Translations under genes and position numbers: made by a program
Part shown: piece by piece, positions 57,128 through 59,237 of the stretch
Layout of the letters: every line of letters starts with the position of its first letter
Position numbering within the stretch: the first letter of the stretch is position 1
Assembly (NCBI GenBank): GCA_048882045.1
Contig: JBHLRZ010000003.1
Coordinates: 1 to 64,000 of the forward strand
Length of the DNA stretch: 64,000 nucleotides
Reading direction: 5' to 3'
DNA from: Candidatus Thorarchaeota archaeon
GTDB taxonomy: Archaea; Asgardarchaeota; Thorarchaeia; Thorarchaeales; Thorarchaeaceae
Notes under the pieces: generated by a model
What the model was told of the DNA's origin: nothing
Seen by the model: only the letters and a program-made list of their open reading frames with translations
The model's database searches: none

Positions 57128-57622
57128 CTAGTATCCACGGCTGAAGTCTCGACCACCACGGCGATCGCCACGGTCTCGGTCTCTGTATCCTCCGCCACCA
57201 CGGCGGTCACGACCATAGCCCCCTCCACCTCTGTAGCGGGGTCTACTCTCGTGTTCTTCTTCAGACATATCGACCTCATCGTTGATTTCTGTGATTTCTT
57301 CCTCAGCTGGCTTTAGTGTGCCATAGCGACCAATGTTGAGTCGGAGATGTCCCTGGAACAGGGTTGTATAACCGTTCTCAAGTCGGTATGTCTTGTCAGC
57401 TTCGACTTCTTCGACCGAAGCATCCCATAGGGGGACAACCACCTTACCTGAACTGTCACCAACGACAGTGTCACACACACGGTGCTGCTCTCCATCTGCG
57501 CGGGATGTCACCTCTCTGACCTCGCCCTTTTCGATGACTTTGAACGAAATGTTCACACTCTTCATCCTTGGTTTGAGTTCAGAAATAACTGCTTCAATCG
57601 GTTCTCGCTCTTGGTAACCCAT
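57128..57622 (-). CDS. ssb: single-OB-fold single-stranded nucleic-acid-binding protein (crenarchaeal SSB / hSSB1-type) with RG-rich tail
   Basis: ISELKP...VNISFKVIE...VGDSSGKVVVPLWD...ENGYTTLFQGHLRLNIGRYG; tail RGGGGYGRDRRGGGGY. Confidence 0.88.
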   Translation of the reverse strand: MGYQEREPIEAVISELKPRMKSVNISFKVIEKGEVREVTSRADGEQHRVCDTVVGDSSGKVVVPLWDASVEEVEADKTYRLENGYTTLFQGHLRLNIGRYGTLKPAEEEITEINDEVDMSEEEHESRPRYRGGGGYGRDRRGGGGYRDRDRGDRRGGRDFSRGY

Positions 57623-57795
57623 GATAACTCACGTTCACTGTGTTCTGCAGGCGTTCAAAAGTAGAATCTTCTTCAGTGATCGCAAAGCTGTGCCTGGAAC
57701 TCTGGAGCTATTGATTCAATTTGAGGGCACTGCTGTTTTTTGGATTGTCTGATTCGCCTATAAAGTCATGCACTGCCAATTTTTCCAGAACAAGG

Positions 57796-58034
57796 TGGAC
57801 GATGGCTAACGCCAAAGACTTGGTGCCCGTTTTTGGGCTCGAGGTCCACCTCGTTTTGTTTTAAACATGAGTGGTGCTCCGATGCACATCGTTGCTTCAG
57901 CATCTCCCTGAACCCAGTTGGGTGAGAGCCGAATCTCCCTGCAGACGGACATTCGTATTGCTTCTTCAACGAGCTTGCTTCATGTCCACGACTTTCAATG
58001 AAGCGGGAGCGACTTCGCGCAAGCCAATCGTCCA
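57796..58034 (+). ncRNA. candidate structured non-coding RNA (~240 nt), unassigned family
   Basis: TGGACGATGGCT(57796-807) pairs with AGCCAATCGTCCA(58022-34); about 10 contiguous internal hairpins; G.U pairs favour the + strand; TATA-like CTATAAAG at 57758-65. Confidence 0.5.
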
Positions 58035-58160
58035 GGTTTGGTATGGAGTTTTCCTTACATAAGTGTTCTGAGTATTCCATTGATGAACTCCCCCAACTAT
58101 TCTATACTCATAGAATAACTTATAAGAAATTTCCCGGAATCCGCAGGACTGGAACCAAAG

Positions 58161-59237
58161 GTGGACCCATTGAACGGAATAAAGGTTGCAATAGTCGGCA
58201 TTGGTAATTGTGCAAGTGCACTTATACAGGGTGTAGAGTTCTATAAGGATGCCAGAGCAAACGGAGAGAACATAGGACTGGGGTATCCAGATTTTGCAGG
58301 ATATCATGTCAAAGATATTCAGTTCGTTGCAGCATTCGATGTAGCTGACACAAAGGTGGGATTTGATCTTGCAGAGGCAATCTTCGCCAAGCCAAACAAT
58401 GTGATGGCTTTTGCCAAAGTTCCTAAGACAGGTATTGAGGTCATGAAAGGTCCAGCACTTGATGGTCTGGACGAGATGCTCAAAGCACTTGTGACCGAAT
58501 CCAAGGCAAAAGATGCTGATGTTGTGAAGGTCCTCAAAGACTCAGGAGCGGAGATACTTATCAACCTCATTCCGGGTTCTGCTGAAGAAGCAACCAAGTT
58601 TTATGCAAATGCAGCCCTCGAAGCCGGATGTGCATACATCAATGGTACTCCCATCCCTATTGCCTCAGACCTTGAGTGGAGTAAGAAGTTTGAGGAAAAA
58701 GGACTTCCTCTAGTCGGAGATGATATTCAAGACCAGTTAGGTTCAACAGTTCTCCACCGGAGCATTCTACAGCTTCTTGTTTCAAGAGGAGTTAAAGTAG
58801 ATGAGAGTTACCAGCTCGACATCGGTGGTGGTGCGGAGTCAATCGATTCGCACTACAGAGGCAGGCTGAGAAAGAGGGGTGTAAAAAGCGAAGCAGTTGG
58901 ACAAGATCTACCATATGATGCCCCGATAGTTGCAGGTTCATCCGATTGGGTATCCTTCATGGATAACGCTCGTGATTCATACTTCTATATTAACGGTCGC
59001 CAGTTTGGTGGCGCACCAATCAAGATCGATATCCGCATGGAGGTCACAGATGGACCTAATGCAGGTCCCATCCTGTTGGATGCTATTAGAGGAACCAAAC
59101 TTGCGCTAAAGAGAGGTCTCAGTGGATCTTTGGAAGCAATCTCTGCCTATGGATTCAAGATGCCACCTACTCCAACCACAATGTATCGTGCTGAGAGATG
59201 GGTGGAAGAGTTCCTGCTCGGAAAACGAAAGCTATAG
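58161..59237 (+). CDS. ino1: myo-inositol-1-phosphate synthase family (divergent active site)
   Basis: VAIVGIGNCASALIQG, VAAFDV..KVG.DL.EAIF, YA.AAL.AG...IN..P, VGDDI, DAIR..KLA, FKMPP. Confidence 0.8.
   Translation: MDPLNGIKVAIVGIGNCASALIQGVEFYKDARANGENIGLGYPDFAGYHVKDIQFVAAFDVADTKVGFDLAEAIFAKPNNVMAFAKVPKTGIEVMKGPALDGLDEMLKALVTESKAKDADVVKVLKDSGAEILINLIPGSAEEATKFYANAALEAGCAYINGTPIPIASDLEWSKKFEEKGLPLVGDDIQDQLGSTVLHRSILQLLVSRGVKVDESYQLDIGGGAESIDSHYRGRLRKRGVKSEAVGQDLPYDAPIVAGSSDWVSFMDNARDSYFYINGRQFGGAPIKIDIRMEVTDGPNAGPILLDAIRGTKLALKRGLSGSLEAISAYGFKMPPTPTTMYRAERWVEEFLLGKRKL

Follow-up and report, generated by a model that had tools for sequence, protein, structure and literature searches.

The DNA analysed here, referred to below as the window, is a stretch of 64,000 nucleotides from a Candidatus Thorarchaeota archaeon (assembly GCA_048882045.1, contig JBHLRZ010000003.1, positions 1 to 64,000). 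In this window a gap of 538 nt separates ssb (57128-57622, minus strand), which encodes an ssb-like OB-fold protein, from ino1 (plus strand, from 58161 or 58170), and inside the gap lies the folded element with which this work is concerned, a candidate RNA gene of about 240 nt (57795..58034, minus strand). An initial annotation, made from the letters of the window alone, had placed a structured element closed by a terminal stem at this site. The stem TGGACGA.../...TCGTCCA is indeed present, and the limits derived from conservation and from covariance models proved nearly identical to those proposed.

A single-copy conserved element between ssb and ino1

A DNA search of 40 relatives recovered the gap in at least 20 genomes of the same genus, and its best-conserved part was the element. 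When the region upstream of ino1 was aligned for 20 genomes, conservation began exactly at GTGGACGA and ended at TCGTCCA; a second conserved block in the same alignment corresponds to the ino1 promoter. The limits of the first block (57795-58034) are also those of the covariance models. Two such models, R1 built from the genus alignment and R2 from 64 sequences, match the element over its full length with 221.6 and 195.2 bits, respectively. The 5' end of the predicted RNA lies at about 58033 (the G of GGACG) and its conserved 3' end, CGUCCAC(C), at 57795/57794, both on the minus strand. Members range from 215 to 256 nt in length, and the 3.6-Mb genome holds one copy.

The surroundings of the element are syntenic and include glcD/glcF-like genes, ino1, a gene for a CpXC-type zinc-ribbon protein and a DedA-like gene. 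In all 15 RNA-bearing genera ino1 is divergent from the RNA, usually with 100-160 nt between the RNA and the ino1 start. The neighbor on the 3' side is either ssb on the same strand, 170-290 nt downstream (part of this genus and genera g19, g15 and g27), or a convergent glcF-like gene. Most genera have no ssb at this position, and the convergent gene then ends about 25 nt past the RNA.

Covariation supports a conserved fold

The element folds better than dinucleotide-shuffled sequences on either strand (z = -3.89 for plus and -4.61 for minus), although both values are flattered by boundaries that were chosen on the terminal stem and are used here as supporting evidence only. Stronger evidence came from comparison among members. 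In the alignment of 64 sequences, 93.0% of the cells in paired columns form standard pairs, and 51 of the 61 pairs have changed on both sides. The covariation score was 0.414 compared with 0.185 in shuffled alignments, none of 500 of which reached the observed value, and it fell to 0.04-0.08 when pairing partners were slid by one to three columns. A structure-blind MAFFT alignment of 25 diverse members led to the de novo recovery of helix P1, part of P2/P3, P8 and P9/P10, with compensatory changes in 20 of 29 pairs.

The RNA is predicted to be read from the minus strand

The initial annotation had assigned the structure to the plus strand on the grounds that several stems contain G.U pairs that work only there. 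Comparative analysis reverses this assignment. Over the 61 pairs in 64 sequences, the minus-strand reading yields 392 G.U and U.G cells versus 44 A.C and C.A cells. As the two counts would swap on the opposite strand, the excess favors a minus-strand RNA, and the asymmetry argues for selection on RNA rather than on DNA. RNAalifold predictions for 20 sequences gave a minus-strand consensus of -62.7 kcal/mol with 61 pairs, 14 of them showing compensatory changes, whereas for the plus strand of the same sequences the consensus reached only -35.1 kcal/mol with 48 pairs and many C-A and A-C breaks.

Signals for transcription were found at both ends of the minus-strand element. A TATA-like box, ACTTATGT (58057..58064, minus strand), occupies positions -31..-24 relative to the predicted start and is preceded by a purine-rich stretch resembling a transcription factor B recognition element (BRE). 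Among the 64 members, with one locus masked, a box of the form [A/G]CTTAT[G/C/A]T or CTTAATT occurs at constant distance in nearly all. Position -1 (58034) is a pyrimidine and position +1 (58033) a G, with the start context YGGACG across members; an own promoter of the TATA/BRE type would thus place the start at the first base of P1. At the other end, a pyrimidine- and T-rich tract, C-UUGUUCUGG... (57780..57794, minus strand), follows directly after the RNA 3' end, and in members with readable downstream sequence tracts of the CTTTTT, CTCATTTT or CTTCTTCT type stand after CGUCCAC. U-tracts are an archaeal termination signal (PMC8716108), and the tract likely acts as one here. The U/C-rich tract begins immediately behind the last base of P1, which indicates that the primary transcript is probably identical to the mature RNA. 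Four independent lines of sequence evidence, i.e., the consensus fold, the G.U excess, the promoter box and the 3' T-tract, would therefore place the RNA on the minus strand.

An RNA transcribed in the opposite direction from the TATA-like sequence CTATAAAG, which the initial annotation had regarded as a possible promoter of the element, is scarcely credible in comparison. The plus strand does fold better than its shuffles, but so does the reverse complement of any structured RNA, and its consensus, in which C-A mismatches replace the G.U pairs of the minus strand, is much weaker. No T-tract follows the plus-strand 3' end. Furthermore, the CTATAAAG box (57757-57765) is conserved only at loci with ssb, while elsewhere the end of a plus-strand coding gene comes within about 25 nt of the element and leaves no room for a plus-strand promoter. 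On the minus strand the box reads TTTATAG (CTTTATAGG), and this reading, together with its dependence on the presence of ssb, identifies it as the ssb promoter.

Based on these findings we consider it highly likely that the element is an independently transcribed, single-copy noncoding RNA gene on the minus strand, with an evolutionarily maintained fold and without a match among known RNA families. The suggestion of a stand-alone structured RNA outside the described families is thus borne out by strong covariation, single-copy occurrence and the lack of an Rfam match.

Architecture of the RNA

The ends of the predicted RNA are joined by P1, in which GGACGA (58028..58033) as the 5' strand pairs with UCGUCC (57797..57802) as the 3' strand, both on the minus strand like all parts of the RNA named below. 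P1 is paired in 95% of cells and shows exchanges of A-U to G-C, C-G to U-A and G-C to A-U. An alternative P1, in which the 3' end would pair with an internal GGUGGAC, was rejected because the internal GGAC does not track the A-U to G-C change. Helices P2 and P3 (5' strands 58016..58024, partners 57805-57813) continue P1 into a closing rod. Both strands have changed in 8 of 8 of their pairs, and 98% and 88% of cells, respectively, are paired, with P3 being weak in the genome studied. The next element is a variable hairpin, P5 (57976..58005), the stem of which covaries (double changes in 7 of 8 pairs) and the loop of which, GAAAGUCGUGG, is conserved within the genus only.

The conserved core (57887..57973) consists of P6 (57967-57973 with 57887-57894) and P7 (57960-57962 with 57899-57901), which together carry double changes in 10 of 10 pairs and enclose two hairpins. 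The first, P8 (CGAAUGUCC-loop-GGAGAUUCG, 57930..57955), is near-invariant in sequence; 99% of its cells are paired, double changes affect 7 of 8 pairs, and an internal purine-purine pair is G.G in 46, A.A in 8 and G.A in 4 sequences. Dimerization by kissing of the P8 loops was also considered and rejected: a 6-nt palindrome occurs in 6 of 35 distinct loops against 2.1 expected, a weak excess given the relatedness of the sequences. The second hairpin, P9/P10 (CUCUCACC-loop-GGU[UCA]GAGAG, 57905..57927), has an almost fixed sequence. P9 is paired in 100% of cells, with double changes in 4 of 4 pairs, and the UCA bulge is invariant (62/62). Outside the core, the small hairpin P12 (CCC-loop-GGG, 57826..57837) has double changes in 3 of 3 pairs and is dispensable, being missing in members L055, L029, L056 and L094.

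The 3' domain (57841..57880) comprises GGAGC (57876-57880), CCACUC (57869-57874), an A-rich loop, AUGUUUAAAACAAAA, and the near-invariant GGGUGGACCUC (57841-57851). Its invariant stretches are GGAGC, CACUCAYGUUCA and GGGUGGACCUC, and we regard the pairing within this domain as tentative. The combination CCACUC/GGGUGG is paired in about 95% of cells, with variation in helices 11-13 that is mostly one-sided. GGAGC has a candidate long-range partner in GCUCC (58006..58010), which would close P5 and the core and is paired in 94.9% of cells. A competing pairing, GAG with the CUC of ACCUC, is likewise paired in about 95%. Insertions on both sides match in L060 (GCUUCC/GGGAGC), L094 (CUCUCU/AGAGAG) and L084 (AGCUUC/GGGGCU), and in the g22 sequences ACCUCA pairs with a downstream UGAGG. 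These observations lead us to favor GCUCC:GGAGC over GAG:CUC.

A comparison of the conserved helices with the stems listed in the initial annotation, 11 internal hairpins and the terminal stem, gave a mixed picture. About four stems match covarying helices (the terminal stem is P1, CTTGCTTCAT/ATGAAGCGGG is P5, ACCC/GGGT is P10 and GCCCG/TGGGC is P12) and CGCCAA/TTGGTG overlaps P3, whereas GAGA/TCTC, ACGG/TCGT, CGAT/ATCG, TTCAG/CTGAA and GCG/CGC are either incompatible with conserved helices or confined to this genome.

The RNA is restricted to one family of Asgard archaea

When the 87 genomes of the order were searched with model R1, 65 of them each contained exactly one match, always full-length; they represent 14 of the 17 genera of a single family. 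With filters switched off, a homolog beside ino1 (84 bits) added a 15th genus. With R2, 23 of 26 family genomes were matched, and 0 of 124 other Asgard genomes sampled gave a match under stricter filters. A motif scan of one genome per species (185,579 species) returned 76 loci. Of these, 43 carry the RNA and are labeled Candidatus Thorarchaeota, Promethearchaeota, in one case 'Hermodarchaeota', or uncultured archaeon; the remaining 33, bacterial and other, fail the model, and about 34 are estimated by chance. Viral contigs of IMG/VR contained no match to the RNA. Hence all copies found fall within one GTDB family, the members of which are labeled Candidatus Thorarchaeota or Promethearchaeota (Asgard archaea) at NCBI.

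Within the order, genus g23 had no homolog beside ino1 in three genomes searched with filters off and no genome-wide R1 match in 4 of 4 genomes. The single genome of the sister family also had no homolog beside ino1 with filters off. At these loci only about 100-150 nt separate the glcF-like gene from ino1. As g23 lacks the RNA and yet keeps its flanks, synteny says little about function, and loss in one genus would mean that the RNA is not strictly essential. Separately, R2 gave two weak additional matches in genome G048 of another genus (C101:33549-33708 and C113:30018-30224; 22 and 17 bits, E of about 1e-3 and 0.04), which could be due to chance or to a distant paralogous RNA.

Neither a protein gene nor a mobile element accounts for the locus

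An open reading frame (ORF) of 104 amino acids (57766-58080, minus strand) extends across the complete RNA gene in the orientation of the RNA, and one frame or another of that strand is open in half of the members. These observations would fit a small protein gene. In the same way, the inverted repeats at the ends would suit a miniature inverted-repeat transposable element (MITE) or another site acting at the level of DNA. We assign a negligible probability to this group of explanations. The open frame differs between members, substitutions are spread evenly over codon phases (60/68/69), lengths modulo 3 are 23/23/17, member translations share only what nucleotide conservation forces, and the 104-amino-acid ORF starts upstream of the predicted transcript start. 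A coding gene was consequently rejected for want of codon periodicity, for inconsistent frames and for indels that do not come in threes. A MITE or other mobile element is contradicted by the occurrence of a single copy per genome at the same syntenic place across 15 genera, in accordance with the check for extra copies proposed in the initial annotation, and a DNA-level site by the G.U asymmetry. Since the RNA strand is depleted in stop trinucleotides (5.5 versus 8.6 per sequence), automated gene prediction may report a spurious hypothetical protein at 57766-58080.

Comparison with known RNA families

Searches against Rfam 15 returned nothing relevant, whether for the whole window at gathering thresholds or at E<=10 for positions 57500-58300 and for 18 diverse members, and ARAGORN detected no tRNA or tmRNA in the whole window. 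This agrees with the initial annotation, which had recognized no RNase P, signal recognition particle (SRP), tRNA or riboswitch motifs. SRP RNA is marked by an Alu domain, helix 5 and helices 6 and 8, and RNase P RNA by the conserved regions CR-I to CR-V and the P4 pseudoknot. Neither family accounts for the element. SRP RNA (RF01857) gave no match at E<=10 with the element or the 18 members, and the genome has a full-length SRP RNA of its own elsewhere (G000:C11:46113-46423, RF01857, 80.5 bits). RNase P RNA (RF00373) gave no match either, and a canonical RNase P RNA is present at G000:C1:75143-75483 (167 bits). As an aside, 80.5 bits lies below the 96.5-bit gathering score of the SRP family, so standard annotation pipelines would miss the SRP RNA of Thorarchaeota.

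Box C/D small RNAs (sRNAs) carry a C box, RUGAUGA, and a D box, CUGA, near their ends, and H/ACA sRNAs an ACA box 3 nt from the 3' end. Both types were discarded, as RUGAUGA was found in 0 of 64 members and a terminal ACA in 0 of 64. A ribonucleoprotein (RNP) of the Y RNA type was rejected because the 93%-complete genome contains no match to PF05731 (TROVE/Ro60). A full-text literature search retrieved no description of this RNA. The RNA is a new family without detectable relative; this novelty concerns the family and not a mechanism.

The new RNA nevertheless has features in common with several established classes. Like archaeal SRP (7S) RNA, it has a single-copy gene of the stable-RNA type and a length of a few hundred nucleotides, with paired ends that form a rod, hairpins that branch from junctions, an own promoter and a U-rich terminator, all as predicted here; SRP RNA, however, is universal, whereas the new RNA is restricted to one family and shows no similarity to it at E<=10. 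With RNase P RNA, including the minimal type T, it shares the size range and a closing P1, and the P5 loop GAAAGUCGUGG resembles the CR-I motif, but this CR-I-like GAAAGUC loop is not conserved outside the genus. Y RNAs and bacterial YrlA, which associate with Ro60 (Rsr), have paired ends and are small stand-alone RNAs with a possible U-rich 3' tail; the new RNA is about twice their size, the genome has no TROVE/Ro60 protein and no Rfam match was obtained. Finally, the bacterial OLE, raiA motif, ROOL and GOLLD RNAs combine, as does the new RNA, a large covarying fold and invariant junction nucleotides with restriction to certain lineages, and their function was unknown at discovery. Their sequences and structures are unrelated to it and they belong to another domain of life, so that the likeness to these classes is one of kind only; those included in Rfam were unmatched.

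Function of the RNA

The RNA is not a cis-regulator of ino1 or ssb. It is divergent from ino1, ssb is mostly absent from the locus and has its own TATA box, and the operator of ino1 stays with ino1 (see below). A riboswitch or other cis-acting leader was also rejected in view of this divergence, of the presence of ssb downstream only in some genera and of a convergent gene in the others, and of the terminator-like tract of the RNA itself. The specific case of a leader for the same-strand ssb, for example in autoregulation through binding of the OB-fold protein with its RGG tail, draws on the position of ssb 170-290 nt downstream in part of this genus and in g19, g15 and g27. We consider it very improbable: most genera have no ssb at the locus and a convergent gene ends about 25 nt past the RNA, a T-rich tract follows the RNA, ssb has its own TATA box, and the OB family is multi-copy and occurs in 87 of 87 genomes, including those without the RNA.

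We hypothesize instead that the RNA would act in trans as the RNA component of a ribonucleoprotein. The invariant nucleotides are concentrated in helices, the bulge and internal loops and do not form a single exposed seed, a pattern expected of protein or tertiary contacts, and the gene arrangement resembles that of stable RNAs. Both features favor a trans-acting RNP, to which, granted that the element is an RNA gene as described, we would give somewhat less than an even chance. A role in Sm/Lsm binding or as a protein sponge or scaffold, as mentioned in the initial annotation, is speculation, although a U-rich 3' tail would be compatible with binding by Sm-like proteins. The partnership with the neighboring RG-tailed OB protein that was proposed at the same time was not supported by comparison: this ssb is one of 3-13 paralogs per genome, the family is present in 87 of 87 genomes, and the locus lacks ssb in the majority of genera.

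Two other functions have to be weighed against a trans-acting RNP. The first is that of a new ribozyme or of a trans-acting RNA sensing a metabolite or ion, with the core (P8, P9/P10, the UCA bulge and GGGUGGACCUC) as active site or ligand pocket and the 3' domain as switch. Very high sequence conservation within helices and junctions, conserved alternative pairings, and a multi-junction architecture as large as is common among complex functional RNAs are all consistent with such a role. On the other hand, the ribozyme and riboswitch families of Rfam 15 were unmatched, no downstream gene is associated for control in cis, no conserved cleavage-site signature was recognized, and the alternative pairings involve invariant bases and so lie beyond what covariation can decide. 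A ribozyme or sensor thus appears unlikely. The second function, that of a base-pairing regulatory sRNA contacting mRNAs through the conserved single-stranded ACCAAGUC, the A-rich loop or ACCUCA, is more doubtful still. A free-standing gene with its own predicted promoter and terminator, some conserved unpaired stretches, and sequences resembling a Shine-Dalgarno motif (GAGGGUGG) and its complement (ACCUC) would suit an sRNA, but a length of 215-256 nt and about 60 conserved base pairs give the RNA far more structure than is usual for seed-type sRNAs, the candidate seeds do not occur in every member (g15 lacks GGUGGACCUC and several members lack ACCAAGUC), and no target was definable.

Several points weigh against the conclusion that the element is a minus-strand RNA gene acting in an RNP. 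The 64-sequence alignment was fitted to the covariance model and is biased towards structure, which the fold from the structure-blind MAFFT alignment offsets in part. Pairings of the 3' domain are mutually exclusive, since GGAGC can pair with GCUCC or with the CUC of ACCUC, and GGGUGG with CCACUC or with UCACCC; being conserved, these alternatives could instead constitute a conformational switch. Expression, exact ends and strand are deduced from sequence signals and covariation only, and the RNP mechanism is drawn from the conservation pattern. Lastly, the fact that all of genus g23 and the sister family lack the RNA speaks against a core housekeeping role.

The RNA, with its roughly 60 conserved base pairs and extended invariant stretches, is kept as a single copy in almost all genomes of an entire family. 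RNAs preserved in this manner have usually proved to have a specific biochemical role. To our knowledge, very few complex structured archaeal RNAs have been recognized beyond rRNA, tRNA, SRP RNA, RNase P RNA and guide sRNAs, and our literature search found none of this kind described for Asgard archaea. Since no group known is more closely related to eukaryotes than the Asgard archaea, a new RNP or functional RNA in this group would be of evolutionary interest. The RNA might be the catalytic or scaffolding subunit of a new, Thorarchaeota-specific RNP machine, or the representative of a new ribozyme or ligand-sensing class. We judge this far-reaching proposal to be a possibility with the balance clearly against it. 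If true, it would mean a new class of functional RNA in the archaeal lineage closest to eukaryotes and not a lineage-specific regulatory sRNA. The covariance model and the predicted strand, gene ends and promoter render the RNA directly testable and allow its annotation in Thorarchaeota genomes.

The neighboring genes ino1 and ssb

Between the two divergent promoters of the RNA and ino1 lies a perfect palindrome, TTCTATACTCATAGAA (TTCTAT-N4-ATAGAA, 58100-58115, plus strand), that is unique in the genome and ends 3 nt upstream of the ino1 TATA box, CTTATAAG (58119-58126, plus strand). Throughout the order it is retained upstream of ino1, and g23 and the sister family, both of which are without the RNA, also keep it beside ino1. 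At a locus with about 650 nt between the RNA and ino1, the palindrome adjoins ino1. It follows ino1 and not the RNA, and the operator is accordingly attributed to ino1. It is probably bound by a transcription factor controlling inositol-phosphate synthesis. Co-regulation of ino1 and the RNA through the palindrome was not supported, since it accompanies ino1 also where the RNA is missing or ino1 is distant.

The ssb TATA box (CTTTATAGG) precedes the start codon of ssb by about 135 nt, a distance that implies either an unusually long archaeal 5' untranslated region of about 110 nt or a second, closer promoter. The ssb-like OB family comprises 3-13 copies per genome, with 8 in the genome studied, and is found in 87 of 87 genomes, including g23. 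The family is also found at G000:C7:95889-97048, and some of the paralogs are arranged in tandem; they are single OB folds with tails of variable length, RGG-rich in the ssb of the window. They form a lineage-specific expansion, the proteins of which may bind RNA in addition to DNA. A functional link between the RNA and the RGG-tailed OB protein has neither phyletic nor positional support and no co-occurrence signal.

The start of ino1 is probably TTG at 58170 (M-N-G-I-K-V-A) and not the GTG at 58161 given in the list of ORFs. Relatives have GAGGTG at this place, which resembles a Shine-Dalgarno sequence, and a conserved TTG 5-7 nt later; tblastn alignments of ino1 mostly start at residue 4. 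At L115-L117 (G064:C11, G047:C1 and G061:C77) a second, distant ino1 paralog with about 42% identity was found besides the syntenic ino1. The syntenic ino1 of a g23 genome (L112, G061:C6:29025-30095) contains one in-frame TAG, which could be due to a sequencing error, a pseudogene or recoding.

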